The notes under the pieces were generated by a model. That model was not told the origin of the DNA. It saw only the letters and a program-made list of their open reading frames with translations, and did not search any database. DNA of 64,000 nt, taken from NCBI GenBank assembly GCA_018261755.1, contig JAGTRJ010000029.1, positions 1,009 to 65,008 on the forward strand. The letters run 5' to 3'. This stretch comes from Burkholderiaceae bacterium. Its GTDB lineage: Bacteria; Pseudomonadota; Gammaproteobacteria; Burkholderiales; Burkholderiaceae_D. The number at the start of each line of letters is the position of its first letter. The stretch's first letter is position 1. Position numbers and translations under genes: made by a program. Positions 4,221 to 56,361 of the stretch are shown one piece after another.

Positions 4221-4341
4221 GGGGTATACCATCAAAACACCCCGCCAGGCCTCGTTTTTGCTGGCTGTTTAAAAATACTGCCTGGAGTATATTTTTCAGC
4301 CTTATTTCACTCAAACGCCGTTTGGGTCAGTTATTTTGGCC
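4221..4341 (-). repeat. Full-length copy of the dispersed ~120-nt palindromic intergenic element (copy R1)
   Basis: The reverse complement reads GGCCAAAATAACTGACC...AATAAGGCTGAAAAATATACTCCAGGCAGTATTTTTAAACAGCCAGCAAAAACGAGGCCTGGCGGGGTGTTTTGATGGTATACCCC. It aligns along its whole length with the copies at 36240, 27981 and 25302. It lies between the convergent pyrE and parB stops. Confidence 0.85.
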
Positions 4342-4410
4342 TTGCCGGCCTCGGATGGCATTTTCCGTCGCTGCCGCAGCCAGCTCACGCTTTGCCAGCC
4401 AGCGCCGACA

Positions 4411-5292
4411 TCATCCCTTCAGTTTGGCAATTACGCCATCGAGTACATCCAGGTTGGCGAAGTCGATGATCATCTGGCCGCTGCCTTTCGCGCCGACCTT
4501 GAATGACACAGTGGTCGCCAGCAGGTCGGACAATTCCTGTTCGAGGTTGGCGATGTCGCCCGATTTTTCCTTTTGCCGCTTGCGGTTCGCGGCCGATTTG
4601 TCGCTCAGGCTTTTGGTCACCAGCTTTTCCGCTTCGCGCACCGACATCCGCTTGGCCACCACCTGGCTCGCGAGCGTGATTTGCATCGCGCTGTCCGCCG
4701 CCAGCAGCGCGCGCGCGTGGCCCATGTCGATGTCACCGGCCATCAGCATCGTCTGCACCGGCTTGACCAGATTCAGCAGACGCAGCAGGTTCGACACCGC
4801 GCTACGCGAGCGGCCGACCGCGGTCGCCGCCTGCTCGTGCGTGAAGCTGAAATCGGTGATCAGCCGGTGGATGCCTTGCGCTTCTTCCAGCGGATTCAGG
4901 TCTTCGCGCTGGATGTTTTCAATCAGCGCCATCGCGGCCGCGGTCTGGTCGTCCACTTCCTTCACCAGCACCGGCATGTCGGCCAGCCCGGCCAGTTGCG
5001 CCGCGCGGAAACGGCGTTCGCCGGCGATGATTTCATACGCGTCGGCGCCATTCTTTTGCCCCAGCGGACGCACCAGAATCGGCTGCATCACGCCTTGTTC
5101 GCGGATCGAGGCCGCCAGCTCGTTTAACGCGCCTTCATCCATCCTGGTTCGCGGCTGGTAACGGCCAGCCTGCAACTGCGTCATCGGCAGCGTGGTGGTG
5201 GTGCCTTGCACTGCCGCTTCGGCAAATTCCGCCGGACCGCCCAGCAGCGCATCCAGCCCGCGTCCCAGCCCTTTTTGTTTTTTGGTCGCCAT
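4411..5292 (-). CDS. parB: Chromosome partitioning protein ParB
   Basis: The ORF at 4411..5310 has a GTG at 5310. The more likely start is the ATG at 5292, giving MATKKQKGLGRGLDALL. ParB box IENIQREDLNPLEEA, plus GERRFRAA. Confidence 0.92.
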   Translation of the reverse strand: MATKKQKGLGRGLDALLGGPAEFAEAAVQGTTTTLPMTQLQAGRYQPRTRMDEGALNELAASIREQGVMQPILVRPLGQKNGADAYEIIAGERRFRAAQLAGLADMPVLVKEVDDQTAAAMALIENIQREDLNPLEEAQGIHRLITDFSFTHEQAATAVGRSRSAVSNLLRLLNLVKPVQTMLMAGDIDMGHARALLAADSAMQITLASQVVAKRMSVREAEKLVTKSLSDKSAANRKRQKEKSGDIANLEQELSDLLATTVSFKVGAKGSGQMIIDFANLDVLDGVIAKLKG

Positions 5293-5306
5293 TCGCTTTT
5301 CCCTGT

Positions 5307-6077
5307 TCACATGTTCTTGATTCGTTCCAGCATTTCGGCGCCGAATTCGATGTAGGCTTTCGCGCCGCGCGAAGCAGGGTCGAAGCTGACGCCCGGCATG
5401 CCGTACGAGGGCGCTTCAGCCAGCCGCACATTGCGCGGAATGATGGTTTTGAACACCTTGTCGCCAAAATGCTGTTCGAGCTGGGCCGATACCTGCTGCG
5501 ACAGTGTGATGCGCGGGTCGAACATCACCCGCAGCAGCCCGATGAGCTGCAATTCGCGGTTCAGGTTCGCATGCACCTTTTTGATCGTGTTCACCAGATC
5601 GGACAAGCCTTCGAGCGCGTAATATTCGCACTGCATCGGGATGATCACGCCATGCGCGGCGCACAGGCCGTTCAGGGTCAACATCGACAATGCCGGCGGG
5701 CAGTCGATCAGCACGAAATCGTAGTCGGCACTCACTTCGGCCAAGGCTTCCTTCAGCCGCGCCTCGCGCCGTTCCAGATCGACCATTTCGACTTCGGCCC
5801 CGGCCAGTTCACGGTTCGACGGCAAGACATCAAAACCGCCGGATTCCGATAGCTGGCGCGCGCCGGGAATGTTGCGCGTGCCCAGCAGCACCTGATAGGT
5901 AGAAGCCGACAGGCCGGACTTGTCGATGCCCGCGCCCATGGTGGCATTGCCTTGCGGATCGAGGTCAACCAGCAACACGCGCTGCTGCAATCTTGCCAGA
6001 CCGGCGGCGAGATTGACGGTGGTGGTAGTTTTACCGACGCCGCCTTTCTGGTTGGCGACACAGAAGATTTTGGCCAT
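5307..6077 (-). CDS. parA: Chromosome partitioning ATPase ParA/Soj
   Basis: 256-aa ORF with the deviant Walker A motif ANQKGGVGKTTT and LLVDLDPQGNAT. Confidence 0.93.
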   Translation of the reverse strand: MAKIFCVANQKGGVGKTTTTVNLAAGLARLQQRVLLVDLDPQGNATMGAGIDKSGLSASTYQVLLGTRNIPGARQLSESGGFDVLPSNRELAGAEVEMVDLERREARLKEALAEVSADYDFVLIDCPPALSMLTLNGLCAAHGVIIPMQCEYYALEGLSDLVNTIKKVHANLNRELQLIGLLRVMFDPRITLSQQVSAQLEQHFGDKVFKTIIPRNVRLAEAPSYGMPGVSFDPASRGAKAYIEFGAEMLERIKNM

Positions 6078-6083
6078 GTGAAA

Positions 6084-11209: not shown

Positions 11210-11294
11210 GTTATTTCCTTGGTTAAAGATGGCACAATTTTACTCTGAGCACGAAAAATGCACGAATTTGTCGGATTTTCGTCAAAAAAAGCGT

Positions 11295-11375
11295 GGTATA
11301 AGCAAATTTTATGTGTTGCATATAGGAAAAATAAATATTTTAAAATACACTACCCAGTATATTTATTACTAAAAA
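11295..11375 (-). repeat. Possible AT-rich degenerate copy of the dispersed element (R2)
   Basis: GGTATAAGCAAATTTTATGTG...TTTTAAAATACACTACCCAGTATATTTATTAC parallels R1 (GGGGTATACCATCAAAACAC...TTTAAAAATACTGCCTGGAGTATATTTTTCAGCC). The match is weak. Confidence 0.3.
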
Positions 11376-11460: not shown

Positions 11461-12021
11461 ATGGGCAACCGTCTTTCTAAAATTGTTACTCGTACCGGCG
11501 ATGATGGCACGACCGGGCTTGGCGATGGCAGCCGGCTAGGCAAGGGCACGGCGCGCATTGATGCGATTGGCGATGTTGATGAGCTGAATTCCCACCTGGG
11601 GCTGCTGCTGTGCGAATCCTTGCCAGCTGGCATACGCGAACCCTTGCTGGCAATACAGCACGATCTGTTCAATCTGGGGGCTGAATTATCAATCCCTGAC
11701 CATCAGGTGATGAAAGAGGAACATGCGTTGCGGCTTGAACAATGGATCAAGGAATCAAACGCTGGTTTGCCACCGTTGAAAGAGTTCATTTTGCCGGGCG
11801 GGAGCAGGGCAGCGGCGCAGGCCCATGTATGCCGCGCGGTCTGCCGGCGGGCGGAACGATCGCTGGTTCGTTTGCACAGCAAGGAAAGAATCAGCGAGCC
11901 GGCGCGGCAATACCTGAATCGTTTGTCCGACTGGCTATTCGTGTTGGCGCGGGTTCTTAATCAGCGCGCTTCGCGCGATGAGGAATACTGGGAAAAATTG
12001 CGCGAAGAAATGTACCGATAA
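11461..12021 (+). CDS. PduO-type ATP:cob(I)alamin adenosyltransferase
   Basis: The ORF at 11446..12021 has MGNRLSKIVTRTGDDGTTGLGDGSRLGK and DELNSHLG motifs. The start could be 11452 or 11461. Confidence 0.88.
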   Translation: MGNRLSKIVTRTGDDGTTGLGDGSRLGKGTARIDAIGDVDELNSHLGLLLCESLPAGIREPLLAIQHDLFNLGAELSIPDHQVMKEEHALRLEQWIKESNAGLPPLKEFILPGGSRAAAQAHVCRAVCRRAERSLVRLHSKERISEPARQYLNRLSDWLFVLARVLNQRASRDEEYWEKLREEMYR

Positions 12022-12054
12022 AAAAACGGCGCTATCAATGGCGCCGTTTTTTTT
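12021..12054. terminator. Bidirectional rho-independent terminator between cob(I)alamin adenosyltransferase and folE2
   Basis: AAAAAA-CGGCGC-tatcaatg-GCGCCG-TTTTTTTT. It has a perfect GC stem with an A-run on one side and a T-run on the other. Confidence 0.8.
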
Positions 12055-17331: not shown

Positions 17332-17394
17332 CCTTGCTCAAGACGGCAAGGGCTGTCCGTGAACGATGGCGGCAACGATGGTATGATGGCGAAT

Positions 17395-17468
17395 CTCCGA
17401 GGAGCGTTGCGACACGCGCAGCAAGCGTGCCAGGCTCGGGGAACTTAACTTTTGCAACGGCGCTCACG
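17395..17468 (+). ncRNA. SAH (S-adenosylhomocysteine) riboswitch
   Basis: CTCCGAGGAGCGTTGCGAC...GCCAGGCTCGGGGAAC...CAACGGCGCTCACG matches the conserved SAH-riboswitch core (CCGAGGAGCG.UGCGAC / CAGGCUCGG / CAACGGCGCUCAC). It sits just upstream of the ahcY RBS AAAGGAGA. Confidence 0.88.
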
Positions 17469-17505
17469 TAACTTTTTTCTGGTTGATAATGAAAGGAGAA
17501 GCGTG

Positions 17506-18827
17506 ATGACGACTGCACGCAAAGACGACTACCAAATCGCCGATATCACCCTGGCCGAATGGGGTGACAAGGAAATCCGCATCGCTGAAACCGAAATGCC
17601 GGGCCTGATGGCAATCCGCGAGGAATTGAAGCGCTCGGCGCGCGGGTGCGCTGGGCCTCGTGCAACATTTTCTCGACCCAGGATCACGCCGCGGCCGCGA
17701 TTGCCGCTGGCGGCACGCCGGTATTCGCGGTCAAGGGTGAAACGCTGGACGACTACTGGGAATTCACGCACCGCATTTTCGACTGGCCCGATGGCGGCTA
17801 TTCGAACATGATTCTGGACGATGGCGGCGATGCGACGCTGCTGTTGCACCTGGGTTCGCGCGCGGAAACCGATCCATCGGTGCTGAACAATCCGGGTTCG
17901 GAAGAAGAAGTCTGCCTGTTCAATTCGATCAAGCGTTATTTGGCCAAGGATGGCAGCTGGTATTCGAAGCGTCTGGCCGAAGTCAAGGGTGTGACCGAGG
18001 AAACCACTACCGGCGTTAACCGCCTGTACCAGATGCACAAGGAAGGCAAGCTGGCGTTCCCGGCCATCAACGTCAACGACTCGGTCACGAAATCGAAGTT
18101 CGACAACCTGTATGGCTGCCGCGAATCGCTGGTCGATGGCATCAAGCGCGCGACTGACGTGATGATCGCCGGCAAAGTGGCGATCGTGGCCGGTTATGGC
18201 GACGTCGGCAAGGGTTGCGCGCAGGCGCTGCGCGCGCTGTCGGCGCAGGTGTGGGTGACTGAAATCGACCCGATCTGCGCCTTGCAGGCAGCAATGGAAG
18301 GCTACCGCGTGGTGACGATGGATTATGCGGCCGAACATGCGGACATTTTCGTTACCGCCACCGGCAACTACCACGTGATCACGCACGATCACATGGTGAA
18401 GATGAAGGATCAGGCGATTGTGTGCAACATCGGCCACTTCGACAATGAAATCGATGTCGCTTCGATCAAGCAGTACCAATGGGAAAACATCAAGCCGCAG
18501 GTGGATCACATCATCTTCCCGACCGGACGCCGCATCATCCTGCTGGCCGAGGGCCGGCTGGTGAACCTTGGCTGCGGCACCGGCCATCCGTCCTACGTGA
18601 TGAGCTCGTCGTTCGCGAACCAGACGATCGCGCAGATTGAACTGTACAGCAACACCAAATCGTATCCGGTTGGCGTTTACACGCTGCCGAAGCATCTGGA
18701 TGAAAAGGTCGCGCTGCTGCAGTTGAAAAAGCTGAATTCGCAACTGACGCGGCTGACGGCGGAACAGGCGGCTTACATCGGCGTGCCGGTCGATGGCCCG
18801 TACAAGCCGAATCATTACCGCTACTGA
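17506..18827 (+). pseudogene. ahcY: Adenosylhomocysteinase, disrupted by loss of a conserved internal block plus a frameshift near 17625-17632
   Basis: The N-terminal frame gives [41 protein letters not shown], then runs out of frame. A second frame resumes at [25 protein letters not shown] and runs to the normal C-terminus PYKPNHYRY. The universally conserved ...PLKGARI.GSLHMTIQTAVLIETL block is absent in all frames. Confidence 0.85.
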
Positions 18828-20094: not shown

Positions 20095-20182
20095 GGGGGT
20101 ATGGGCGTAAATGCGATTGCCGGGCCAGATATTTAGCGGAAAATTATAAATACTGGCCCGAGTATGTTTTGCCGCTTCGGCC
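20095..20182 (-). repeat. Degenerate copy of the dispersed element (R3)
   Basis: GGGGGTATGGGCG...AAATACTGGCCCGAGTATGTTTTGCCGCTTCGGCC. It keeps the GGGGTAT end and the ATACTGGCCCGAGTAT palindromic core. Confidence 0.55.
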
Positions 20183-22814: not shown

Positions 22815-25313
22815 ATGAACGCGCAAACGGCAAACGGCGGCATTTTCCACTCGATGGCATTCGTGCACCTGCTGCTCGACCGGCAATGGCGCATTCGCTC
22901 GATCAACCGCGCCGGGATGGCCGTTCTCGGCTATGCGAATGCCGAAGATCTGGTCGGCAAGTCGCTCGAAATGCTGGTGCCGCCGGGGCAGTGGGATGGC
23001 AAGCGTCTGGCGGCGGCGCTGAAGCTGCTCGAACAGGGCCAGATGCCGCCGGCGTTTGCCTTCGATTTGCAATGCCGCGATGGCCAGACGATACCGATAC
23101 TGTGGAACCTGGACCAGCCGGCGATAGAAGTCGGCGGCGAATCCGGCATTTTGCTCCTGGGGTTCGATGCGACTGCGATTCGCCACAGCCAGGAAGCGAT
23201 CGCGCTGTTCCAGAGCGTGGCTGAAAATTACAGCGGCAGCATCGTGATCACCGATGCGCAGTCGCATATCCTGTATGTGAACCCGGCCGCGCAGCGCATC
23301 ATGGGCTATCCGATCGGCGAACTGTTCGGCCGCTCGATGAAGGATTTCCGTTCCGACAAAACGCCAGTCGAGGTTTACCATCAGCTCAAGGATGCGCTGG
23401 CGCGGCGCGAGTTGTGGAAAGGCGAATTCATCAACCGCCGCAAGGATGGCGAACTGTACGTCGAAAGCAAGACCATCGCCGCGATTCAGGATGAAAACGG
23501 TGAAGTGCAGTATTACTTTGCGATTGGCGAAGACATCACGCAACGGCAGGAATATGAAAAGCAGATCGAGCGGCTGATGATGTTCGATCAGTTGACCGGC
23601 CTGCCGAACCTGGGCGCGTTCCAGCGCGAGATTGCGGCGGCGCAGGAATCGGCCCGGCTGGGCAAACAGCAGATTGCGTTGCTGCATATCGATTTCGACG
23701 ATTTTAAAAAAACCAACCGCGCCATCGGCAGCGACGCGGCCGAGCAAGTGCTGACCGAAACGGCGGTGCGGATCAAGGAAATCCTGCGCGAACACGACGT
23801 GGCTGCGCGCGTTGCCGGTGACGAATTCGCGATTCTGATCGGGCCGGGCAAAAGCGAGGTGCAGGCCGACAGCATCGAAATCGCGCGGCGCGTGCTGGCC
23901 GCGATCCGCCGCCCATACCTGCACGCGGGCCAGACGATTACGATCACCGCCTCGATCGGCATTGCCCGCTATCCGGACGCCGAAGGCAATGACGACCTGT
24001 TCGGCAACGCGATGAACGCCACGCTGCGGGCGAAAAACGGTGGCGGCAACGACATCCGCGTGTTCGAAGCGGCGATGGCGAGCGACGAGAACTGGCGGCG
24101 CGAACTGCTGCAGGCGATCGAGCGCAACGAACTGGTGCTGTACTACCAGCCGCAGATCAACCTGTATTCAGGCGCGATCGTCGGCGTTGAAGCGCTGATC
24201 CGCTGGCAGCATCCGGTGCGCGGGCTCGTGCCGCCGTCGGAGTTCATTCCGCTGGCCGAGGAAGGCAACCACATCGTCGAAATCGGCGAATGGGTGCTGG
24301 CCGAAGCCTGCCGCCAGATGCGCGCGTGGCAGGATGGCGGCCTGCCGCCGATCAAGGTCGCGATCAACCTCGCGGCGCGGCATTTCCGCCAGCCAACGCT
24401 GCCCGGTTCGATTGCGCTGGCGCTGACGTCGCAACGGCTCGATCCGAACCTGTTCGAAATCGAAATCACCGAAAGCGCGATGATGCTGGACATGGTGGCG
24501 GCGGTGCGCAACATGGGGCAACTGAAGGAACTCGGGGTGCGCATCGCGCTCGACGATTTCGGCACCGGCTATTCATCGATGGCCTACCTGTCGCGCTTTC
24601 CGATCGACGTGGTCAAGATCGACCAGTCGTTCGTGCGCGACATCACCACCAATCCGGCCAATGCGGCGATTGCGAAGGCGACCATCGCGATGTCGCACAA
24701 GCTGGGCAAGAAAGTGCTGGCCGAGGGGGTCGAAACGCTGGAGCAGATGACCTACCTGCGGCGCAGCGAATGCGACGAAATGCAGGGCTACTACTTTTCG
24801 CGTCCGGTGCCGGCGGGCGAAATCGCGCGCATGCTGCGGCAGGATCGGCGGATTGCCGCGGTGCCAAAGAGCGAAGCGCCGGCGCGCGACACGATCTTGC
24901 TGGTTGATGACGAAACCAGCATCCTGTCGGCGCTCAAGCGCACGCTGCGGCGCGAGGGTTACACCATCCTGACTGCGCAAAGTGCCAAGGATGGTTTCGC
25001 GCTGCTGGCGAAGGAACCGGTCAAATTGATCGTGTGCGACCAGCACATGAGCGAAATGACCGGCACGCAATTCCTGTCGCAGGCGCGGATGATGTATCCG
25101 GAAACGGTGCGCATCGTGCTGTCCGGTTTTTCCGAAATCGCCACCGTCACCGACGCGATCAACAAGGGCGCGGCCTACCGTTTCCTGACCAAGCCGTGGA
25201 ACGACGAGCAGCTGAAGGAAGAAATCCGCGGCGCGCTGCGCCACTGGCGCGAACTGTACGGCAGGGAGCGCGGCAGCGGGCGGCAAAGCAAGCTGTTTCG
25301 CGGGGGTATATAG
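22815..25313 (+). CDS. PAS-PAS-GGDEF-EAL protein with a C-terminal receiver (REC) domain
   Basis: The ORF is 22719..25313, with the likely start at ATG 22815, 14 nt after the kinase stop. The GGDEF domain has an AGDEF variant and an RxxD site (REHD) five residues upstream. EAL motifs: EALIRW, DDFGTGYSS, EGVE, QGYYFSRP. The C-terminal REC reads ILLVDDE...LIVCDQHMSEMTG...FLTKPW. Confidence 0.9.
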   Translation: MNAQTANGGIFHSMAFVHLLLDRQWRIRSINRAGMAVLGYANAEDLVGKSLEMLVPPGQWDGKRLAAALKLLEQGQMPPAFAFDLQCRDGQTIPILWNLDQPAIEVGGESGILLLGFDATAIRHSQEAIALFQSVAENYSGSIVITDAQSHILYVNPAAQRIMGYPIGELFGRSMKDFRSDKTPVEVYHQLKDALARRELWKGEFINRRKDGELYVESKTIAAIQDENGEVQYYFAIGEDITQRQEYEKQIERLMMFDQLTGLPNLGAFQREIAAAQESARLGKQQIALLHIDFDDFKKTNRAIGSDAAEQVLTETAVRIKEILREHDVAARVAGDEFAILIGPGKSEVQADSIEIARRVLAAIRRPYLHAGQTITITASIGIARYPDAEGNDDLFGNAMNATLRAKNGGGNDIRVFEAAMASDENWRRELLQAIERNELVLYYQPQINLYSGAIVGVEALIRWQHPVRGLVPPSEFIPLAEEGNHIVEIGEWVLAEACRQMRAWQDGGLPPIKVAINLAARHFRQPTLPGSIALALTSQRLDPNLFEIEITESAMMLDMVAAVRNMGQLKELGVRIALDDFGTGYSSMAYLSRFPIDVVKIDQSFVRDITTNPANAAIAKATIAMSHKLGKKVLAEGVETLEQMTYLRRSECDEMQGYYFSRPVPAGEIARMLRQDRRIAAVPKSEAPARDTILLVDDETSILSALKRTLRREGYTILTAQSAKDGFALLAKEPVKLIVCDQHMSEMTGTQFLSQARMMYPETVRIVLSGFSEIATVTDAINKGAAYRFLTKPWNDEQLKEEIRGALRHWRELYGRERGSGRQSKLFRGGI

Positions 25314-25422
25314 CCAAAACATGGCGCTGGGCCACGATTTTGATGGCCGTTTTTAGATACTGGCACGAGTATATTTTTCGGCCTTAATGACTGAAATGCT
25401 TGTTCTGGTCAGTTATTTCGAC
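25302..25422 (-). repeat. Full-length copy of the dispersed element (R4); overlaps the stop codon of the GGDEF-EAL gene
   Basis: GGGGGTATATAGCCAAAACATGGCGCTGGGCCACGATTTTGATGGCCGTTTTTAGATACTGGCACGAGTATATTTTTCGGCCTTAATGAC...GGTCAGTTATTTCGAC is the reverse complement of the consensus defined by R8. Confidence 0.85.
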
Positions 25423-25453: not shown

Positions 25454-25538
25454 GGGGTATGTGGCGAAATCGCTGGTTTTTCCCAGATTTTACGAGGCGG
25501 TTTAAAAATACCCCTGCTAGTATGGCTGCTTTCAGGCC
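25454..25538 (-). repeat. Degenerate copy of the dispersed element (R5), adjacent to R4
   Basis: GGGGTATGTGGCGAAATCGCTGG...TTTAAAAATACCCCTGCTAGTATGGCTGC. It has the same end and core layout, and it overlaps the stop of the 5-formyl-THF cyclo-ligase gene. Confidence 0.5.
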
Positions 25539-26127: not shown

Positions 26128-27984
26128 GTGTTGCACTGGCCCAAAAACATCACGCTGGCGCTGTGCGCCGGCAGCGTTCTGGCACTGACCCAGCCGCATC
26201 TTCATGCCGCCGAATCTGGTGCCGATCAAACCTTCCTCGCGCTGCGCGATGCCGCCCGCAAGGACAAGGTCGACAAAGCGGCCGAGCTCGCGGCCAGGCT
26301 GAAGGATTATCCCATACCGTCGTACGTCGAATACTACCGTCTGAAGCCTCGGGTGAAGGATTTGCCGCACGGCGAAATCCGTGCGTTCCTGAACCGCCAT
26401 GCCGGCACAGCGATCGCCGACCGGCTGCGCAATGACTGGCTGCTGGAGCTGGGCAAGCGGCGCGACTGGGCCAGGTTTGACGAACAGTATCCGCAGTTCG
26501 TGCTCAAGGATGACGTGCAGGTGACTTGCTATGCGCTGCTGTCGCGTGCGGTCAAGGGGCAGCCGGTGGCGGCCGAGGCGCGTGAGGCGTTGACGCAGCC
26601 GAAAAAATACGGCGAAGGCTGCGTGGCGCTGATTGCCACGCTGGCGAAGAATGGCCAGTTCACGCCGGACGATGTATGGTTCCAGATCCGGCAGGCGGCG
26701 GAATACGGTTCATCCGGCGTGGCCGAGCGGCTGGCGCCGGTGGTGGGCGCGGATGAACGCCAGGTTGGCCGGGCGGCCGATCTGCCGCTGCTGACGCTGG
26801 CGCGCGGCGCGCAATCGAGCCGCGCCGCGCATGAAACCTTCATCATCGCGCTTGGCCGTCTGGCGCGGAAAAACCACGAGCAGGCGGCGGCTTACGTGCT
26901 GCAGCACGCGGTTGGCAAGTTGAGCGCGCAAGAGCAGGAGCTGGCGTGGTCGCAGATTGCGTTGCGCGCATCGTTTTCGCTTGCGCCTGAAGCATTGTCG
27001 TACTGGAAGAAGGCTGGCAACGCGCCGTTGTCCGACGAAGGCCATCAGTGGAAGGTACGCGCCGCATTGCGCGCCGGCGACTGGAAGATGGTGCAGCAAG
27101 CGATCGATGCGATGCCGGCTGCCTTGCAGCGCGACCCGGCGTGGATTTACTGGAAAGGGCGCGCGCTCGCTACCGAAGGCCAGCGCGAACAGGCACGCAA
27201 GCTGTTCCAGTCGATCAGCCATGAGCGGCAATTCTATGGCCAGTTGGCGCTGGAAGAACTGGGGCAGAAAATCACCATTCCGCCGCGCGCGAAGCCGGTG
27301 AGCGAAGCCGAGCTGGCGCCAATGGCGCACAACGGCGGCTTTGCCCGCGCGCGCAAGCTGTACGAGCTGGATCTGCGCTTCGATGGCGGGCGCGAATGGA
27401 ACTGGGAACTGCGCCGGATGAACGACCGCGAACTGCTGGCGGCGGCGGAATTCGCGCGCAAGATCGGGTTGCTCGACCGGATGGTCAACAGCTCCGACCG
27501 CACCAAACATGAATTCGATTTCACGCAGCGCTTCCCCACGCCGCACCGCAAGCTGATGCAGGATGCGACGGGCAAGCTCGGACTGGACATGGCGTGGAGC
27601 TATGGCCTGATTCGGCAGGAATCGCGCTTCATCATGCATGCGCGCTCGTCGGTCGGCGCGTCCGGCCTGATGCAGCTGATGCCGGCGACGGCGAAATACG
27701 TGATCACGCTCGGTACGAATTATCTGAAGATGGTGCTCGATCAGCTCGACGGCTCGCAGGCGATGGCCTCGGCTGCGTACAACGCCGGGCCGAAGCGGCC
27801 GAAGAACTGGCGCACGACGCTGCCGTGGAAGATCGAGGGCGCGATTTTCGCCGAAACCATCCCGTTTTCTGAAACGCGCGGCTACGTGAAAAACGTGCTG
27901 TCGAACGCGACTTATTACGCCGCGCTGTTCGAGGACAAACCGCAGTCGCTCAAGGCGCGGCTGGGCAGCGTCACGCCAAGATAA
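26128..27984 (+). CDS. slt: Soluble lytic murein transglycosylase (Slt70 family); the catalytic domain appears to lack a short internal segment
   Basis: The ORF is 26038..27984, with a probable GTG or TTG start at 26128/26131 before the signal peptide LALCAGSVLALTQPHLHA. It has superhelical U/L domains and a C-terminal SLT domain: ESRFIMHARSSVGASGLMQLMPATAKYV-ITLGTNYLKMVLD...AAYNAGP. Confidence 0.85.
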   Translation: MLHWPKNITLALCAGSVLALTQPHLHAAESGADQTFLALRDAARKDKVDKAAELAARLKDYPIPSYVEYYRLKPRVKDLPHGEIRAFLNRHAGTAIADRLRNDWLLELGKRRDWARFDEQYPQFVLKDDVQVTCYALLSRAVKGQPVAAEAREALTQPKKYGEGCVALIATLAKNGQFTPDDVWFQIRQAAEYGSSGVAERLAPVVGADERQVGRAADLPLLTLARGAQSSRAAHETFIIALGRLARKNHEQAAAYVLQHAVGKLSAQEQELAWSQIALRASFSLAPEALSYWKKAGNAPLSDEGHQWKVRAALRAGDWKMVQQAIDAMPAALQRDPAWIYWKGRALATEGQREQARKLFQSISHERQFYGQLALEELGQKITIPPRAKPVSEAELAPMAHNGGFARARKLYELDLRFDGGREWNWELRRMNDRELLAAAEFARKIGLLDRMVNSSDRTKHEFDFTQRFPTPHRKLMQDATGKLGLDMAWSYGLIRQESRFIMHARSSVGASGLMQLMPATAKYVITLGTNYLKMVLDQLDGSQAMASAAYNAGPKRPKNWRTTLPWKIEGAIFAETIPFSETRGYVKNVLSNATYYAALFEDKPQSLKARLGSVTPR

Positions 27985-28094
27985 CTGACCGGAATGCCAT
28001 TTTCGTTCAATAGGGCCAAAAAATATACTGGGGCCAGTATTTAAAAACAGCCAGCAAAACTGTGGCCTGGCATCGTGTTTTGGTTATATACCCC
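27981..28094 (+). repeat. Full-length copy of the dispersed element (R6); its left end contains the slt stop codon
   Basis: ATAACTGACCGGAATGCC...AATAGGGCCAAAAAATATACTGGGGCCAGTATTTAAAAACAGCCAGCAAAACTGTGGCCTGGCATCGTGTTTTGGTTATATACCCC. Confidence 0.85.
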
Positions 28095-30477: not shown

Positions 30478-30550
30478 ACGAAAATACCGCCAAGGGTATT
30501 TAAAATCCGCGAAATGTATCGCGCGGAGGGTGCTTTCTCGCAGATCCCCC
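30478..30550 (+). repeat. Possible degenerate copy of the dispersed element (R7), upstream of the giant exoprotein gene
   Basis: CGAAAATACCGCCAAGGGTATTTAAAATCCGCG...GCAGATCCCCC. It has a weak core palindrome ATACC..GGTAT and a CCCC end. Confidence 0.3.
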
Positions 30551-30831: not shown

Positions 30832-33800
30832 ATGTCCATTTGCACGCCAGCGGGCTCCGCGCCCAATTCTGTCATCTTCATCGATAGCGCCGTTTCTGAC
30901 TTCAACACCCTGATCACAGCGCTTCCTGCCGGCAGCGAATATGTTTTGCTCAATTCTGACAGCGACGGCTTCGCGCAGATGGCGGCTTATCTGCAGGGCA
31001 GAACCGGCCTCGATTCGGTGCAATTGCTGTCGCATGGTGCATCCGGGCTGGTGCAGGCGGGCAGCAGCACGCTGACGGCAGACAACATCGCCAGCCACAG
31101 CGCGCAACTAACGGCGATTGGTGCTGCGCTGAAAGACAGCGGCGATTTCCTGATCTACGGCTGCAACGTGGCCCAAGGCGCGGCCGGCGAAGCGCTGGTG
31201 CAGCAGATTGCCAGCATCACGCAGGCCGATGTGGCGGCGTCGACCGATCTGACCGGAAATGCAGCGATGGGTGGGGATTGGGTGCTGGAAGCTACCACAG
31301 GCACGGTCGAGACGGTTCTACCTTTGTCTCTAGATGTTATGCAGTCATATCAGCAAGTGCTGGCAACTTTTGATCTGACTGGCGCGACAAGTAACGGCTC
31401 GAAAACCGTAAAACAAACTGTCGGTTCCGATGAGATTGTTCTGACGGCAAAAAGCATGGATTGGGTTTTGGGAGATGCTTCTCTTATCACATACAATGAC
31501 CAATATCTGGCCGGCACGATTGCAGGCCCAGCAGGTTCTGGCGCAGAGTCAGAGATAACAATTACTGTAACCGGCGGAAAGCTTTTTAACTTGTCGTCGC
31601 TGGCAATATTCGATACCGATGGTAGTCATCAAACCTTGGTAATTACGTCTGATAAAGGTCAAGTTACATACAATCGAGAAGTATCAGAAACAGGTTATGC
31701 ATGGTCAGTCACAACAACGGATCAGAACGCACAAGGCGTGAGCTGGGTAAAGCTGACAACGAGTGATTCATCATCTTTCAATTGGTATTTCGATAATGTT
31801 GTCCTGAACAACATCCAGTCGCCACCTACCGTTAGCGCGTCTTCCCCCGACTCAGTGTGGGACACGGCAGCCGCCGACACCTTCGCCAATGTGAATGGCA
31901 CGCTGACGGCAACCATTTCCGCCATCACCAATAGTCCCATCAGCGCCTACGGCATTGTCGGCGGAACAAGCGGGACTTACAGCATTGACGATGTGACTTA
32001 CGACGTCTCCAAAACCAGCGCCTACGGCACTTTGTACGTCAACAGCCAGACCGGCGCTTACGTCTATGACCCCGACGACGCAGCGATCAACGCGCTCGGG
32101 CTTTTCTACAGTGGTGGTGGCGCCACGAGAAGTGATATTTTCAAAGTCACGGCCACGGACAACGTTAATGCCACCGGCCAGACCGATCTGTGGGTTTCCC
32201 TCAACGGCGCCAACGACACGCCGATCTTCACCTCCGCCGCCACGGCCACCGTGACCGAGAATACGACCGGCACCGTTTACACCACCACCGCCACCGATTG
32301 CGACCGTGAGCACTCCCTTAGTACGAAGGTTTATAGCACCCAGGCGCTCGCATACAGCCTCTCCGGCGGCGCCGATAAAGATCTGTTCAGCATCGACGCC
32401 AGCACCGGCGCGGTAACCTTCAAAGCAGCACCCGATTTCGAAGCCCCGACTGACAGCAACCACGATAACGTGTACGACATCACTGTCACCGTCACCGTCA
32501 CCAACAGCGGTACTGGAGGCGAGAAAACGATAGATACCGCCTCCAAGGACGTGCAGATCACCGTCACCAACGGCAGCGACTATGTGCCGGTCATCAGCAA
32601 TACCTCGGTGAGCAAAACCTTCAATGAGGATAGCGCCCAAACCTTTACGGCTTCGGACTTCGGTTTCAGCGATGTGGACAGCGGCGACATATTGCAATCC
32701 ATTACTATCGTCACCGCGCCGGGCGCTGGTGAGCTGTTTATTGATGCCAACGGCGACGGTGTGCGCGGCGCCGGCGATACATTGCTTGGCAACGGGGCGG
32801 TAGTCAACGCGGCCGATATCGGCAAATTGACCTTCCGCCCGACAGCGAATGCCAACGGCACGGGTTATGCCTCCTTTACCTGGAAGGTCAGCGACGGCAC
32901 GGCGTTGTCCGCCAACACGGGCAGCATGACGCTGAATGTTACGCCGGTTAACGATGCGCCAACGTTGTCCAGCGGCGTGACCGTCGCACTGACTCCGACC
33001 AACGAAGATGCGACGTCGTCCGCCACCACTGTGTCGTCGTTGCTCAGCAACGCGGGCTATGACGATGCAGACAGCGGGGCGTCCAGCGGCATTGCTATTA
33101 CCACGACGGCAGGGAATGGCGGCTGGCAATACTCCACCGACAGCGGGGCCAACTGGTTCAATATCGGTACGGTATCTGGTTCATCGGCACTGCTGCTTCG
33201 TTCGACGGCGCAGATTCGCTATTTGCCGGACAGCGCCAATGGCGAAACCGCAACCCTGAGTTTCAAAGCGTGGGATCAAAACAGCGGTACGGCAACAGCG
33301 GGCGCCAGCAAGGGCCTGGCGGATACGTCGACGTCTGGCGGCAGCAGCGCGTTCTCGACTAATGGCGCCCAGGCGTCGCTGGTGGTGACCAGTGTGAATG
33401 ATGCGCCCACTGTGGTTAATTCGGTCAGTGCTCAAAGCGCAACCAAAGACACGGCGTTCAGTTTCACGGTGCCGGCCAATACGTTTGTTGACGTAGACAG
33501 CAGTGATACGCTAACGCTAAGCGCAACGCGGGCAGATGGTTCCGCGCTCCCAGTGTGGTTGAGTTTTAACTCGGCAACCCGCACGTTCTCAGGCACGCCG
33601 GGCAGTGGCGATGTAGGCAGCCTGAACATCCGGATAACCGCGACCGACGGCAGCAATGCCTCGGTCAGCACCACCTTCGGGTTGACGACCAACAACAGTA
33701 ATCTTTCGCCAGTTGTTTCCAGTCCGGTGACCGATCAGAGCATCTCGCAAAACGGCAGCCTCAGTTTTACCGTTCCGGCAGGCGCCTTTACCGACCCCGA

Positions 33801-36240
33801 TGCTGGCGACACGCTGACGCTAAGTGCAACGCTGGCAAATGGTTCGGCGCTGCCGGGCTGGCTCAGCTTCAACCCGGCAACCCGCACGTTCTCAGGCACG
33901 CCGGGCAACAGCGATGTAGGCAACCTGACCATCCGGCTGACGGCGACCGACAGCCATAACGCGTTGGTCAGCACCACCTTCGGGCTTGTTGTCACCAACG
34001 TCAACGATGCGCCTGTTGTGAGCGGTGCTCTGGCAGCCCAGACAGCCACACAAAATGACGGTTTCAGTTTTGCCGTACCGGCCAACACCTTTACCGACCC
34101 CGATGCCGGCGACACGCTGACGCTAAGTGCAACGCGGGCGGATGGCTCGGCGCTGCCGGGCTGGCTGAGCTTCAACCCGTCAACCCGCTCGTTCTCAGGC
34201 ATACCCGGCAATGGCGATGCGGGCAACCTGCTCATACGGCTGACGGCGACCGACGGCAGCAATGCCTCGGTCAGCATCACCTTCGGGCTTGTTGTCGCCG
34301 CAAGTGGCGGTGGTGACACACAGGTAACGCCACCGACACCGACCAGCACCACCATCGACGGCGCGCTGGTGCAGCAGACCACGACCACCAACAGCCAGAC
34401 GGGTGTTCCGCAAACCATCATCACGGTGCCGACCATCACAGCCGGCCGGGTGGACGACCCGACCACCGCGCACACCGCGCAGGCCGACATCCCGCTTGGC
34501 CCGACCGGCAGCAGTTCATCGATCCTGGTCGGCTTGTCGACCGGCTGCGGCCTGCAAGCCGTCAGCCCGACAGTGGCGCTCACGTCAGGCCAGACGATCA
34601 CCACGCTAGGCGGCGCCATCGGCCAGATAGCCGGCGTGCTGGGAGGGACAGATCTCTTTGGGGGAATGCAAGGCTACTTTGGCGGCACAGGTGGCACGGG
34701 CGGGGCGTTTGCTGCAGGCGTCCTCGCACTCACCGGCGGCACCGGCAGTGGCGGCGCGGGTTCGAGCATCACCCTCACGGGCTCAAGCGGCACAGCGCTG
34801 GTGCTCGACACCCTGCAACTGGGCAGCAGCACCTCGATTGTGCTCAACAATGTCGGCTTTGCCGCCATCATCGGTAACGCCACGCTCACCGGCGGCGCCG
34901 GCCAGAACTACGTCATCGGTGACGGCCACTCGCAAAACTTCTACCTCGGCGCCGACGACGATAGCCTGTTCGGCGGCGCCGGCAACGACATCATCGGCAG
35001 CGCCGGCGGCAACGACTATCTCGACGGCGGCGCGGACAACGACATCGTGTACGGCGGCATCGGCAACGACACCGTCATCGGTGGCGCTGGCGATGACATC
35101 CTGTTCGGCGGACGAAGCGACGCTGGCGTATGGCAGTTCTACCTCAAGGATGGACAGATCATTGCGCGGCACAATGCCGAGCTGACGCAAACCGGCTGGG
35201 AAACCTTCACCATTAGCGAACTCGACACCACCGTGGAGGCGCTTGGCTTCAGCGGCACCGACGCGGGACGGCTGGCCTCGCTGGCGTTGCTCTATCACGC
35301 CGCCTACGGGAGTGCGGCGATACTGGTGGAATTGAATCACTGGGCCCAGAGCGACTGGAGCATCGACAAAATCGCGCAGTGCTTCACGGAAACCACCCAG
35401 TGGAAATGGAAAATGGACGGATTGGACAATGAGACATTTGTGCAAACGCTCTACCAGACCGTGCTTGGCCGGGCAGGCGATAAGGCCGGGGCTGATTACT
35501 GGGTCGGGCAGCTTAGTGGCAGCGGCACCAGCCAGCTCGGCCGCGCCGACGTGCTGAAAGCCTTTGCCTTCTGCAGCGAACACCAAAGCGTCGCACAAAC
35601 TGCGAATGGACTAGAACTGGGAGAAACTGAACTCCAGCGCGAACAGGGCTGGATCATCAACAGTGGCAATGACACCCTGAAAGGTGGCGCCGGCAACGAC
35701 ATCATCTACGGCGGAGACGGAATCGACACGGTGCAATACGACGGCAAGTTTTCAAGCTACAAGATACTGCTGGGCGACTATGGCCGCATCAAGATAGTCG
35801 ACACGGCCACGGGCGACATCGACACCATCAGCGGCATCGAATACGGCGCATTTGCCGATGGCACGATCGATCTGAGCTTTACGCAAACATCCGTCAGCAC
35901 GCTGCAAAATATCGGGTTGCTGTACCAGATCGCGCTGGGACGCGCGGGCGACCTGGCAGGCGTGGCGTACTGGTCTGGGCAGAGTATCACCGCGGAGCAG
36001 ATGAGCGCATGCTTTGTTAACTCGGCCGAATTCAAAGAGCTCTACGGGTCGTTAAGCGACATTGATTGCGTGGCGGCGATGTACCAGAATACCTTGCACC
36101 GTGCGCCGGATGCCGAGGGGTGGGCATACTGGGAAAATTACCTGCAATCGCATACCAAGGCGGAACTGGTGGCGAACTGGATCAATCAGCCGGAATTCAT
36201 CGGTAGCCAGTACGGCGCGGATGGGTTGTGGTTGGTGTAG
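30832..36240 (+). CDS. Giant (1802 aa) DUF4347 / VCBS / cadherin-like / RTX / DUF4214 repeat exoprotein; putative T1SS-secreted adhesin
   Basis: N-terminal DUF4347-like region: [20 protein letters not shown]...[12 protein letters not shown]...[14 protein letters not shown]-like region: [15 protein letters not shown]...DIFKVTATD...[10 protein letters not shown]. Cadherin-like modules end in VNDAPT. Three 101-aa He_PIG/dystroglycan-type repeats have the form [45 protein letters not shown] nonapeptides: [50 protein letters not shown]4214-like segments: [59 protein letters not shown]. Confidence 0.9.
33418..34326 (+). repeat. Three tandem 303-bp (101-codon) repeats inside the giant exoprotein gene
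   Basis: The landmark GA(Y)ACGCT(R)ACGCTAAG(Y)GCAACGC recurs at 33505, 33808 and 34111, exactly 303 nt apart. Units 2 and 3 are nearly identical over long stretches. Confidence 0.9.
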
Positions 36241-36359
36241 GCCAAAATAACTGACCGAGATGACTTTGTGGTCAATAAGGCTGAAAAATATACTCTGGGC
36301 AGTATCCAAAAACAGCCAGTAAAAATGTGGCCCAGCGTAGTGTTTTGGCTATATACCCC
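36240..36359 (+). repeat. Full-length copy of the dispersed element (R8), used here as the reference orientation
   Basis: GGCCAAAATAACTGACCGAGATGACTTTGTGGTCAATAAGGCTGAAAAATATACTCTGGGCAGTATCCAAAAACAGCCAGTAAAAATGTGGCCCAGCGTAGTGTTTTGGCTATATACCCC. It starts at the last base of the giant gene's stop codon and ends one base before the nudB stop codon. Confidence 0.88.
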
Positions 36360-45200: not shown

Positions 45201-45300
45201 GGGGAGTATGGATAGAAACCGGGCGATGGACCACATATTTGCTGGCTTTCCATGAATACTGCACCCAGTATTTTTCGAGACCGGTGAGCCGGAAAATCAC
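45201..45300 (-). repeat. Degenerate copy of the dispersed element (R9)
   Basis: GGGGAGTATGGATAGAAACCGGGCGATGGACCACATATTTGCTGGCTTTCCATGAATACTGCACCCAGTATTTTTCGAGACC... It is collinear with R1 and R4. It lies between the HIT gene start and the YqaA-like gene stop. Confidence 0.6.
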
Positions 45301-51560: not shown

Positions 51561-51571
51561 CGGGCACCCTG

Positions 51572-54405: not shown

Positions 54406-54504
54406 ATGGATACAATATGATTCGTTGGCAACGCAGCCGGCATGGGCGCACAACAAGGGCGTAAAATCAGGCCGGTTGAATTCTTCTCCGTTACGGGAGC
54501 TCAC

Positions 54505-56280
54505 TTGAAAAACACACTGTTGATTGTAATCCTGTCGGCAGCATTGTCCGCGATCGGTGGAGCGCAGGCATGGGCGCAGGATAAACCGCAGGAAAAGCCG
54601 GCCGCCGTTACCGCACAACCAGACGCAGGCAAGGGGCAGGCGGCCGATCCGCTGCCTGAAGTGCAACTGACGCGAGAAATCCTGTTCAAGCTGCTGTCGG
54701 CCGATCTGGCATTCCAGCGCGGTTACTGGAAAGCGGCCTACAACACGACGATGAGCGTGGCCAAGCAGACGCGCGATCCCCGCATTGCGCGGCGCGCGGC
54801 GGAAATGGCGGCCGCCGTGCAGCGTCCGGGCGAGGCGCTGGCCGCGGTGCGGCTGTGGCGCGAACTGGCGCCGCATTCGGACGAGGCGGCGCGGTATTTT
54901 CTCGGTTTCGTGCTGCTCAGCGGCGAGCTGACGGAAGCAAAGCCGGTGCTGGCGCGCCAGTTGAAGGAGGCGCGGCCGCAGGATCGGGCGATCGTGATGT
55001 TCCAGATTCAGCGGCTGCTGGCGGGCGTGACCGACAAGGAAAAGGCGTTCTCGCTGCTGGAGGAATTGCTCAAGCCCTATCTGAACACGCCGGAAGCCCA
55101 CATCGCGCTGGCGCAGGGGGCGTATAACAAGGGCGACCGCGAGCGGGCCACGCAGGAATCACAGCGGGCGCTGGCGATCAAGCCGGATTCCGAACTGGCC
55201 GCGCTGACGCTGGCGCAGGCGAGCAGCGATGCCGACCACGCGGAAAAGGTGCTGGCCGATTTCATTGCCGCCCATCCGCAGGCGCGGGACGTGCGCATCG
55301 CGTATGCGCGGGTGTTGATCGCGCAAAAGAAATACGACGTGGCGCGGCATGAATTCGAGGCGCTGCTCGAGCTGCAGCCGAAGGATCTGGTGTCGCTGTA
55401 TTCGCTGGGCCTGCTGTCGGCGCAGGCGAACGATGCCAGAAATGCCGAGCGCTATCTGGCGGCCTATGTTGAAGCTGCAGGTTCGCAAAAGAGTGTCGAG
55501 CGCGAGCAGACGCAGGTGCTGCTGCTGCTGGCGCAACTGGCGGACGAGCGCGGCGATATCGATACGGCACTCAAATGGCTGGAACAGATTGAACAGCAGC
55601 CGGGCAATCAGGCTGCCTATGTCGGCGCCCGCATCAAGCGCGCGCAGATTGCCGCCAAGCGGGGCGAGATTGGCAGCGCGCGCAAGATCCTGAGCGAAAC
55701 CGAAGCGCAGGATGAAGCCGGTCAGGTGCAGTTGATCATGGCGCACGGGCAATTGCTGCGCGACGCGAACCAGTTGCCGCAGGCGATGGCGGTGCTTGAA
55801 GCCGGACTGAAGCAGTATCCGAAAAACACCAACCTGCTGTACGACTATGCGATGGTGGCGGAAAAGCTGGACCGGATCGTGGAGATGGAGACCTCGCTGC
55901 GGCTGATCATCGCGCTTGAGCCGAACAACTTCCACGCTTACAACGCGCTCGGCTATTCGCTGGCCGACCGCAATCTGCGTCTGCTGGAAGCGCAGGAGCT
56001 GATCGAACACGCGCTCAAGCTGGCGCCGGAAGATGCATTCATTCTCGACAGCATGGGCTGGGTGCAGTTCCGTCTGGGCAAGATCGATGAAGCCGAAAAG
56101 CTGTTGCGGCGCGCGCTGGGCAAGCGTGGTGATGCCGAAATCGCGGTGCATCTGGGCGAAGTGCTGTGGCACAAGGGCCAGCAGGATGAAGCCAGGAAGC
56201 TGTGGCGCGCCGCGGCAGCCAAGGATCCGGGCAATGATGCGCTGAAAAGCACACTCAAGCGGCTGAAAGTCGCGCCATGA
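54505..56280 (+). CDS. Tetratricopeptide-repeat (TPR) periplasmic protein
   Basis: The ORF is 54442..56280, with a probable TTG start at 54505 before the signal peptide LKNTLLIVILSAALSAIGGAQAWA. It has multiple TPR-like repeats and occupies the conserved position upstream of lolB-ispE. Confidence 0.82.
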   Translation: MKNTLLIVILSAALSAIGGAQAWAQDKPQEKPAAVTAQPDAGKGQAADPLPEVQLTREILFKLLSADLAFQRGYWKAAYNTTMSVAKQTRDPRIARRAAEMAAAVQRPGEALAAVRLWRELAPHSDEAARYFLGFVLLSGELTEAKPVLARQLKEARPQDRAIVMFQIQRLLAGVTDKEKAFSLLEELLKPYLNTPEAHIALAQGAYNKGDRERATQESQRALAIKPDSELAALTLAQASSDADHAEKVLADFIAAHPQARDVRIAYARVLIAQKKYDVARHEFEALLELQPKDLVSLYSLGLLSAQANDARNAERYLAAYVEAAGSQKSVEREQTQVLLLLAQLADERGDIDTALKWLEQIEQQPGNQAAYVGARIKRAQIAAKRGEIGSARKILSETEAQDEAGQVQLIMAHGQLLRDANQLPQAMAVLEAGLKQYPKNTNLLYDYAMVAEKLDRIVEMETSLRLIIALEPNNFHAYNALGYSLADRNLRLLEAQELIEHALKLAPEDAFILDSMGWVQFRLGKIDEAEKLLRRALGKRGDAEIAVHLGEVLWHKGQQDEARKLWRAAAAKDPGNDALKSTLKRLKVAP

Positions 56281-56281
56281 T

Positions 56282-56361
56282 GGTGAAAATATACTCCGTG
56301 CAGTATTTGTAAAACGTCGCGGAATATCCTGCACAGATGCGTAATTTTTTCATATACTCCC
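56282..56361 (+). repeat. Degenerate copy of the dispersed element (R10), overlapping the lolB start
   Basis: GGTGAAAATATACTCCGTGCAGTATTTGTAAAACG...ATTTTTTCATATACTCCC. It keeps the core palindrome ATACTCCGTGCAGTAT and a TATAC(T)CCC end. Confidence 0.5.

Follow-up and report, generated by a model that had tools for sequence, protein, structure and literature searches.

Here we describe a dispersed intergenic repeat, ~120 nt long in its full form, found in a 64,000-nt stretch of DNA from a Burkholderiaceae bacterium (contig JAGTRJ010000029.1, positions 1,009-65,008). We call this whole stretch the window, and all coordinates refer to it unless they carry the prefix of a compared locus (L). Four full copies (~120 nt), four short copies consisting of the right ~75 nt only and two decayed copies lie in these 64 kb. 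Judging from sequence comparison, we give about even chances to the following reading: the repeat is an old, lineage-restricted insertion family of an uncultured Oxalobacteraceae clade, now kept by selection on its sequence and spacing as a protein-recognition module. All sequences compared come from metagenome-assembled genomes (MAGs) or metagenome assemblies.

Copies in the window

The first-pass annotation of this DNA had reported a family of elements dispersed in both orientations, with four full-length copies, four shorter ones and two possible ones. The family is real: a hidden Markov model (HMM), built first from the 4 full copies and later from 85 copies, finds 8 definite members. The four full copies (E = 1e-31 to 1e-34) align over ~120 nt with a mean column identity of 78%, and the similarity ends abruptly on both sides. 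It is a conserved core with sharp ends, not low-complexity similarity, that the copies share. All four full-length sites were located correctly, with the start of the third moved from 27981 to 27975 and that of the second from 25302 to 25303. The four shorter copies are significant as well (E = 2.5e-10 to 5e-6) and match HMM positions ~42-121 only, which is the right module. The core pattern has 15 matches in the window (both strands of 8 sites) against 0.07 expected. A two-end signature, ATAC-N6-10-GTAT-N36-60-ATACYC, finds exactly the 8 definite copies and nothing in 100 simulated sequences. The high density claimed earlier holds, at ~1 copy per 6-8 kb.

By HMM the two possible copies score poorly, and it is synteny that supports them. 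The one at 30482-30548 aligns with short copies that two other species (L111 and L112) have in the corresponding acetyltransferase/NUDIX gap. In the one at 11290-11366 the core AAATATACTGGGTAGTGTATTTT and the TATACCAC end can still be discerned, and the orthologous gap of species C has a clearer copy with a 71-nt two-end signature (L105:4539-4609). Since the orthologous gaps of other species hold clearer copies, we read both as decayed members. The copies are as follows.

4221-4341 (-): full copy, left and right module; HMM E = 3.6e-31; convergent gap between a phosphoribosyltransferase gene (+) and parB (-)
~11290-11366 (-): decayed AT-rich short copy, the weakest member; HMM E = 1.8 (11338-11364), not significant; divergent promoter gap, cobalamin adenosyltransferase gene/amidohydrolase-like gene
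20096-20175 (-): short copy, right module; HMM E = 2.5e-10; MTHFR gene/sensor kinase gene, tandem, antisense
25303-25422 (-): full copy; HMM E = 1.5e-31; lineage-specific extra insertion beside an older short copy
25454-25523 (-): short copy, right module only; HMM E = 5e-6; adjoins the 3' end of the 5-formyltetrahydrofolate (5-formyl-THF) cyclo-ligase gene
27975-28094 (+): full copy; HMM E = 3.5e-34; SLT transglycosylase gene/86-aa gene, tandem, sense
30482-30548 (+): decayed short copy; HMM E = 0.095 only; directly 3' of an acetyltransferase gene
36240-36359 (+): full copy; HMM E = 8.6e-34; fills a convergent gap, 1802-aa RTX-type adhesin gene (+)/NUDIX gene (-)
45204-45279 (-): short copy; HMM E = 8e-10; HIT gene/VTT-domain gene, tandem, sense
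56285-56360 (+): short copy; HMM E = 5e-8; TPR-protein gene/lolB, tandem, sense

Architecture of the repeat

The consensus is ggccaAAATAACTGACc-nAAAnTGnATTTTn-GGTCAgTAAGGcc-AAAAAATATACTCCnGCCAGTATTTaAAAACaGCCAGcAAAaatGTGGCCcgGcg..gtgTTTTggctATATACCCC, followed by a weak nnnnAWTT. Full copies measure 119-123 nt, and their mean GC content is 41.5% in a genome of ~60% GC. The right module (~75 nt) has an A-rich start, the invariant palindrome ATAC-N8-GTAT and a TTTT-N5-6-ATACYCC end, and in short copies it stands alone. In full copies it is preceded by a left module of ~45 nt, a AAATAACTGACC-loop-GGTCAGTAAGG hairpin (…GGTCAGT). The copy at 36240-36359 may serve as an example, with the left hairpin module at ~36240-36284, the palindrome at 36290-36305 and the end motif ATACCCC at 36353-36359. 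The consensus given in the first-pass annotation, its ATACT/AGTAT inverted repeat, its GCCAAAA/TTTTGGC pair and its TATACCCC end are all correct at the consensus level, and inspection of the alignment confirms that no conserved open reading frame (ORF) is present.

The left module is duplicated in L060, while the orthologous L003 is without the extra unit, and of the species compared at the SLT junction three have the left ~30 nt and two do not. Both ends of the right module, the palindrome and ATACYCC, are its most durable parts. A loose two-end pattern, allowing a total length of 43-105 nt, was run over 1.09 Mb of sequence and gave 123 unique matches; ~2 matches at any spacing are expected by chance. 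The span from palindrome to end is exactly 69 nt in 106 of the 123 and 68-70 nt in 118, and the palindrome spacer is 8 nt in 118. Among the window's short copies the signature is 69 nt long at 20097-20165, 25455-25523 and 56291-56359, and 68 nt long at 45204-45271. The family is set apart by ends that resemble direct repeats (ATATACTCC … ATATACCCC), by its rigid 69-nt spacing and by a clear purifying selection that comes with no RNA covariation; the last two are taken up below.

Some sequence variants are shared within groups of copies. In the middle segment the group of short copies has a consensus of its own, GCCnnGGAAnnnnnGGCC. In species C, four non-orthologous copies (L021:4399-4518; L105:10950-11018; L111:9335-9403 and 11957-12025) share GCCGCAGAA where the main consensus has GCCAGCAAA. 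Such shared variants may reflect concerted evolution or co-evolution with a trans-acting factor.

Origin by insertion and age

Syntenic loci from five further genomes were compared with the window at four gaps: MTHFR/kinase, GGDEF-EAL/5-formyl-THF ligase, SLT/86-aa gene and acetyltransferase/NUDIX. The ingroup species have copies at the four junctions, which in the outgroups L113 and L114 are gapless or overlapping. In outgroup F three of the four compared gene pairs overlap; in outgroup G the two comparable junctions are 11-18 nt apart, neither with a copy. In species C, D and E, whose SLT proteins are 72-79% identical, each compared gap carries a copy orthologous to the window's, except that the MTHFR/kinase gap lies off the species E contig and that species D has an RTX gene after the acetyltransferase gene. 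Looking for presence and absence in orthologous spacers, as had been proposed, thus yielded both occupied and empty sites. From the empty, gapless outgroup junctions we conclude that the copies are genuine insertions that date from a common ancestor.

At the SLT junction the insertion has changed a protein. The outgroup SLT proteins end in …LGTITPKNNGGTSLP and are 9-10 residues longer, and their genes overlap the 86-aa gene or lie 11 nt from it. In every element-bearing species the protein is shortened, ending in …LGSVTPR or …LGSVASN, and the element itself contains the stop codon; in the window this is the TAA inside ATAACTGA of the 27975-28094 copy. The orthologue of this copy is full-length in MAG108 and species D and reduced to the right module in species E and C.

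The gap between the GGDEF-EAL-REC and 5-formyl-THF cyclo-ligase genes was filled twice. In the outgroup the gap is empty and the flanking genes overlap by 4 nt, while species C, D and E have a single short copy only. The short copy at 25454-25523, with orthologues in L110, L111 and L112, is by this comparison the ancestral occupant. The TATATAG end of the full copy at 25303-25422 is the source of the stop codon of the GGDEF-EAL-REC gene (C-terminus ...RGGI). In species D this gene (L110:6831-9302) is called as three consecutive ORFs of 537, 113 and 150 aa, so it is either a pseudogene or carries frameshift errors of a long-read assembly.

Other copies of the window have orthologues too: 20096-20175 in species D and C, 36240-36359 in L023:2907-3027, and 4221-4341 in MAG CTSoil_108 (L002) and in a third species (L105:10905-11019). 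The copy in the parB gap is orthologous in species C despite a genomic GC content of 55% there against 61% in the window, and even its 'variable' hairpin interior is recognisably shared. Altogether at least five species carry orthologous copies, among them species in which ParB has 89-90% and SLT 72-79% identity to the window's proteins. Among non-orthologous copies the 39 variable columns have a mean identity of 0.45 and a maximum of 0.79, and the copies examined give no sign of recent copying. Orthology across at least five species, together with the lack of young copies among those examined, shows that the family is old. As to how copies disappear, L099:7877-8191 has two tandem copies, and the orthologous L014:4400-4737 keeps a ~20-nt right-end remnant at the position of the first; this remnant shows loss by internal deletion, not by precise excision.

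Host and range

ParB and SLT homologues place the host in Oxalobacteraceae (Burkholderiaceae in GTDB). The nearest named genera by ParB, at 75-79% identity, are Noviherbaspirillum, Undibacterium, Herbaspirillum and Herminiimonas. For scans of sequence collections a strict core pattern was used, which is the exact core of the young full-length subfamily. In species-representative genomes it occurs in 24 stretches. Of these, 21 are from one soil MAG, 'Burkholderiaceae bacterium CTSoil_108', one each is from MAGs CTSoil_114 and 3L_29, and the remaining one is a core-only match in Undibacterium griseum. Three related metagenomes gave 78 stretches. From this material, and with later loci, 85 unique full and 30 unique short copies were extracted.

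The strict-core scan by itself would imply a very narrow host range. We reject such a range, as the looser two-end signature finds copies in more distant genomes. A right-module copy lies in the shared murB/ppnP gap of the more distant L107 and L109, so that the short form is older and more widespread than the strict-core scan implied. In Undibacterium griseum (L009:724-830) the element core (AAAAATATACTCCCCCCAGTATCTTAAAACAGCC) occurs once, in a different context and without the canonical ATACYCC end; this locus also has a 10-nt inverted repeat (TACTCCCCCC … GGGGGGAGTA) ~55 nt apart, and the match may belong to a related but distinct element.

The statement that this is no recognised named family has held up. 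The family consensus has no match in plasmid, phage and viral-contig collections or, by blastn, in 5,426 complete E. coli genomes. Rfam at the gathering threshold finds only a SAH riboswitch and a tRNA in the window, both elsewhere than the copies, and permissive Rfam scans of two copies gave chance-level matches only. A literature search by keyword and by conserved sequence string returned nothing relevant to the repeat.

Selective constraint on sequence and spacing

Of the 121 positions of full copies, 62 are high-information (conserved) and 39 low-information (variable) columns. The two classes evolve very differently. In seven orthologous pairs the conserved columns differ at 14 of 434 positions (3.2%) and the variable columns at 111 of 268 (41%). 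In the flanking genes of the same species pair, identity is 95-99% for first and 79-90% for third codon positions. Across a deeper split the identities are 88% for conserved columns, 90-92% for codon position 1, 70% for codon position 3 and 53% for variable columns. In the non-coding spacers of the same gaps identity is 74%, and there are 410 gap columns for every 719 aligned. By these comparisons the conserved columns appear to evolve like first codon positions, with variable columns and neighbouring spacers near saturation. Conserved columns and a fixed length beside diverging spacers point to purifying selection in place, acting on ~62 of the 121 positions and on the spacing.

[quoted passage not shown] The family is indeed dispersed, non-coding and found in one lineage, and it includes deleted remnants and decayed copies. 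Shared ancestry does not, however, account for paralogues whose variable columns are saturated (mean identity 0.45) while the other 62 columns are ~95% identical. Moreover, the conserved columns stay intact past ~20-30% synonymous-site divergence and the length stays fixed while the neighbouring spacers gain indels. We consider the relic explanation very improbable.

Position relative to genes

Placement at gene boundaries, already noted in the first-pass annotation, holds throughout. Of 72 classifiable copies, convergent gaps hold 39 and a divergent gap 1; the other 32 are in tandem gaps, 15 of them in sense and 17 in antisense orientation. By gap, the compared loci have copies in 45 of 77 convergent gaps, 46 of 249 tandem ones and 2 of 76 divergent ones. 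The copies come very close to coding sequence: the TATACCCC end lies at most 21 nt from a stop codon in 27 of 56 cases, and in ~9 copies the TAA or TGA of ATAACTGA is itself the stop codon of the upstream gene. In the window the copies are scattered among housekeeping genes such as parAB, gidAB (mnmG, rsmG), dxs, ahcY, metF, aspS, prs, mnmE and others. With respect to GC skew, the 8 definite window copies lie 4 each way.

RNA structure, terminators and promoters

A position at gene ends might mean that the repeat works as RNA. In that case it would be a sequence-specific element of the 3' untranslated region (UTR), co-transcribed with the gene and acting on mRNA decay, processing or translation termination through an RNA-binding protein or RNase. 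The copies hug stop codons, as counted above; some lie between a stop codon and an intrinsic terminator and are consequently transcribed. Hairpins exist locally at the consensus level. Reported precedents for a role in the fate of mRNA are ERIC in Yersinia and REP adjoining stop codons (PMC3184786).

Our results on base-pairing speak against a folded RNA, an option raised at the outset. In 85 full copies four candidate helices, one of them a 3' hairpin, are 78.2% paired compared to 77.8% after column shuffling, and 78 of 500 shuffles were at least as high. In 30 divergent short copies the values are 74.4% and 73.5%. RNAalifold gives -1.42 kcal/mol with a covariation term of -0.01 and keeps only one invariant 5-bp hairpin. 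Compensatory changes, the search for which had been recommended, were never seen in the ATAC/GTAT pairs, where the few deviations just break the pair. No consistent G-U over A-C asymmetry is present on either strand, and the helices disagree on the strand. Thermodynamic folding of both strands gives z-scores mostly at noise level, i.e. most copies fold no better than shuffled sequence. Finally, a strand-specific signal should show an orientation preference, and the tandem gaps show none (15 sense vs 17 antisense). From the alignments we conclude that constraint acts on base identity and not on base-pairing. Taking both sides together, we regard the RNA explanation as unlikely.

A related suggestion is that the repeat is a portable, possibly bidirectional, intrinsic terminator. 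It is enriched in convergent gaps and at 3' ends, and TATTTT(G) comes after the left hairpin when the reverse strand is read; one copy was flagged by the terminator scan. Yet this hairpin is weak (mean folding free energy -7.4 kcal/mol, with -8 or lower in 44% of copies), a terminator-like match inside the element is found at 17% of 3' ends only, and short copies do without the hairpin. Nor do tandem gaps show an orientation bias. Substitution of the element for ordinary terminators was also considered and rejected: these are not depleted in element-bearing gaps, numbering 0.23-0.24 per 3' end in gaps with the element and 0.22-0.24 in gaps without it. Termination is therefore a most improbable function.

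By reading, no convincing sigma-70 or sigma-54 promoter is found in the consensus on either strand, and the promoter scan flagged no copy. The IHF core (WATCAANNNNTTR) is, again by reading, absent from either strand of the consensus.

Mobility

Target-site duplications, the search for which had also been proposed, were not detected in two tests, both of lower power with old copies. Exact k-mers (k = 3-9, all offsets) were duplicated in at most 9 of 83 copies, and at an offset not adjacent to the element; in a per-position diagonal test the maximum z was 3.1 over 5,388 tests and did not fall at the boundaries. As for terminal inverted repeats, there is only a sub-terminal, imperfect complement of 9-10 nt (GCCAAAAYA / TGTTTTGGC), with 73.6% of cells paired and no covariation. 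The true right terminus ATATACCCC has no inverted partner, and the short copies are without the left arm. No conserved target motif is seen at -12 to -1 of the left end, where the element's own first five positions fade gradually. Pfam annotation of the window genes, in which 6 of the 53 called genes were neither scanned nor matched to an annotated orthologue, shows no transposase, integrase or recombinase, in agreement with the earlier remark that no transposase is nearby. Likewise, no repeats resembling an insertion sequence (IS) were found in ~0.86 Mb of related loci.

Several of these features would suit a non-autonomous single-strand or site-specific element (an IS200/IS605 PATE, an IS110-type element or a recombinase site) that is still mobilisable in trans and whose conservation reflects the needs of the enzyme. 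The ends are asymmetric, without terminal inverted repeats or target-site duplications; hairpins lie near the ends, at a rigid distance to a cleavage-like end; the left module has been gained or lost at fixed sites. Accessory genes are bracketed (the RTX adhesin gene in the window and a Sel1-repeat gene in L012), and one extra full-copy insertion is specific to the window lineage. However, no near-identical non-orthologous copies were found. Conservation in place at orthologous sites is not explained by the needs of an enzyme alone. The missing target motif 5' of the left end, the lack of a transposase in the window and of IS-like repeats in the related sequence, and the lack of a leading/lagging strand bias among the 8 window copies also argue against it. 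We find this explanation decidedly unlikely.

Comparison with known families

The first-pass annotation had suggested that the repeat is REP/BIME-like or MITE-like. Defining features of these groups are missing, namely target-site duplications, true terminal inverted repeats and a GC-rich palindrome of 20-40 nt. REP/BIME sequences have been proposed to bind IHF, gyrase and Pol I and to affect mRNA stability (PMC3184786). The present family resembles them in its bias to convergent gaps and 3' ends, in occurring in both orientations and in its mosaic modules. REP are short G+C-rich palindromes (20-40 nt), whereas this repeat is 75-120 nt long, has 41.5% GC, is mostly non-palindromic and is conserved in base identity; no RAYT gene was seen among the window genes. 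With the MITEs (Correia/CREE, RUP, Nezha) it shares the small non-autonomous insertions, occupied and empty sites, truncation of ORF ends and supply of stop codons. Unlike MITEs, it is without terminal inverted repeats, target-site duplications and young copies, and it has no known parent IS.

ERIC, which is present in E. coli, has terminal inverted repeats, target duplications and a flanking TA (PMC3184786). ERIC/IRU of Enterobacteriaceae (~127 bp) are like the present family in size, in being non-coding, in intergenic or 3' UTR location in either orientation, in dozens to hundreds of copies per genome and in having long and short variants. The differences are that our repeat has no sequence similarity to ERIC, no terminal inverted repeat or target-site duplication, only local palindromes, and an Oxalobacteraceae host. 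Wilson and Sharp are said to have noted in 2006 that orthologous ERIC copies are unusually well conserved between species. The IS200/IS605-derived PATEs also have asymmetric ends, no terminal inverted repeats, no target-site duplications and hairpins near the ends. They differ from the repeat described here, which has no conserved left-flank tetra- or pentanucleotide, shows no strand bias (8 copies only) and is not accompanied by a Y1 transposase among the window genes. BRE of Bordetella are about 90 bp long with 69% GC, often in tandem and similar to variable-number tandem repeats (PMC3110155). They too are dispersed intergenic repeats of Burkholderiales with full and partial forms, but identity with BRE is rejected on size, GC content and tandem arrangement. 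An integron attC origin is rejected as well. The copies are dispersed in both orientations among housekeeping genes, no integrase was found in the window, and AAATAAC and GTTTTGG fit the attC core RYYYAAC/GTTRRRY poorly by reading. Among small dispersed intergenic repeats, those that the family behaves most like are ERIC and BIME, which it resembles in size, in location, in mosaic make-up and in persistence.

Accessory genes, further repeats and other features

The RTX/He_PIG/DUF4347 adhesin gene (1802 aa, 30832-36240) shows presence/absence polymorphism: the window and species D have it, species C, E and F do not, and neither does MAG CTSoil_108, where the full repeat copy alone remains. In the window it is bracketed by the decayed short copy at 30482-30548 and the full copy at 36240-36359. 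A second accessory gene so bracketed is the Sel1-repeat gene of L012 (1808-2734, -), flanked by a truncated copy (1641-1704) on one side and a full one (3009-3126) on the other; beside the full copy, 63 nt of the gene's 3' end are present in duplicate. L012, with a lone left module 1.3 kb from a full copy, was considered as an autonomous parent of the family and rejected, as it holds the Sel1-repeat gene and not a transposase.

Directly after some copies (L062:8511+, L080:3975+, L086:1525-, L102:3148- and L041) there is a shared module of ~60 nt (CCCAC…GGTGATCCACAGTGGGTAAATTGCCAGTT), followed in L086, L102 and L041 by a highly palindromic repeat of ~250-300 nt. These sequences indicate at least one further dispersed repeat family in the genome.

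The SAH riboswitch mentioned above (Rfam RF01057, 67.4 bits) lies at 17393-17472 (+), upstream of the S-adenosylhomocysteine hydrolase gene (17646-18827), which is followed by a holin-like gene and then metF. The tRNA is a tRNA-Gln(UUG) gene at 57910-57986 (+), between a GHMP-kinase (ispE-like) gene and prs. Origin-proximal genes are present in the window: parB, parA, rsmG and mnmG at ~4.4-9.9 kb and mnmE at 62.2 kb (62208-63563). The cumulative GC skew has its minimum at ~12-16 kb, which suggests a replication origin or strand switch nearby, and the region 8-12 kb is AT-rich (52% GC).

A probable recognition module at gene ends

How can insertion, age and constraint without pairing be brought together? 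In our preferred reading, the insertion family kept as a protein-recognition module, the elements inserted at the extreme 3' ends of genes in a common ancestor, often replacing the last codons and donating a stop codon, as the empty outgroup junctions show. The family gives no sign of recent copying, and its copies are retained at orthologous sites under purifying selection. Each copy would then be an orientation-independent, sequence-specific recognition platform. Its most likely form would be double-stranded DNA, bound by a protein or complex that makes contact with the palindrome and, a fixed distance away, with the ATACYCC end. Roles of a comparable kind may be IHF/gyrase-type binding as for BIMEs, or that of a recombination or architectural site; a stably folded RNA would be less likely. 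Insertion, age and a constraint on base identity and on the 69-nt spacing without pairing together point to a trans-acting partner that can be searched for.

Several points weigh against this reading. A protein-binding module was one of the options in the first-pass annotation and the evidence favours it, but the DNA-level binding step is something that we infer by exclusion. The strict core pattern used for the collection scans biases the copy set toward copies that match it, the orthologous comparisons are few (~8-12), and gene calls at most loci come from our own codon-usage caller, which reproduced the collection's own calls. The enrichment at 3' ends can arise simply from selection against insertions in promoters. 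Many copies are located in 3' UTRs, are probably transcribed and may have an RNA role that depends on reading the sequence, not the structure. Part of the conservation signal could instead stem from gene conversion between copies, and the GCCGCAGAA variant in four copies of species C is a hint of concerted evolution. Conversion would not readily explain, though, why conservation differs column by column.

The preferred reading can tentatively be taken one step further, to a form of 'genome punctuation' that we regard as possible but doubtful. An ancient mobile element would have seeded, at gene 3' ends throughout an Oxalobacteraceae clade, a bipartite module, its parts 69 nt apart, that is maintained by the host and read by a putative trans-acting protein or complex. 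If this is true, the role of the copies may be in chromosome architecture or topology, in recombination that brackets accessory genes, or in a function coupled to termination or translation. The variants shared by the copies of one species would then be a result of co-evolution with the trans-acting factor.

Bacteria commonly have small dispersed repeats, but whether they make use of them is rarely clear; in this family comparison allows insertion, age and constraint to be separated. The family reshapes gene ends: it supplies new stop codons and C-terminal tails, it separates genes that formerly overlapped, and its copies coincide with the presence and absence of accessory genes. It would offer a concrete case, open to testing, of an intergenic element domesticated within an uncultured lineage of soil bacteria.

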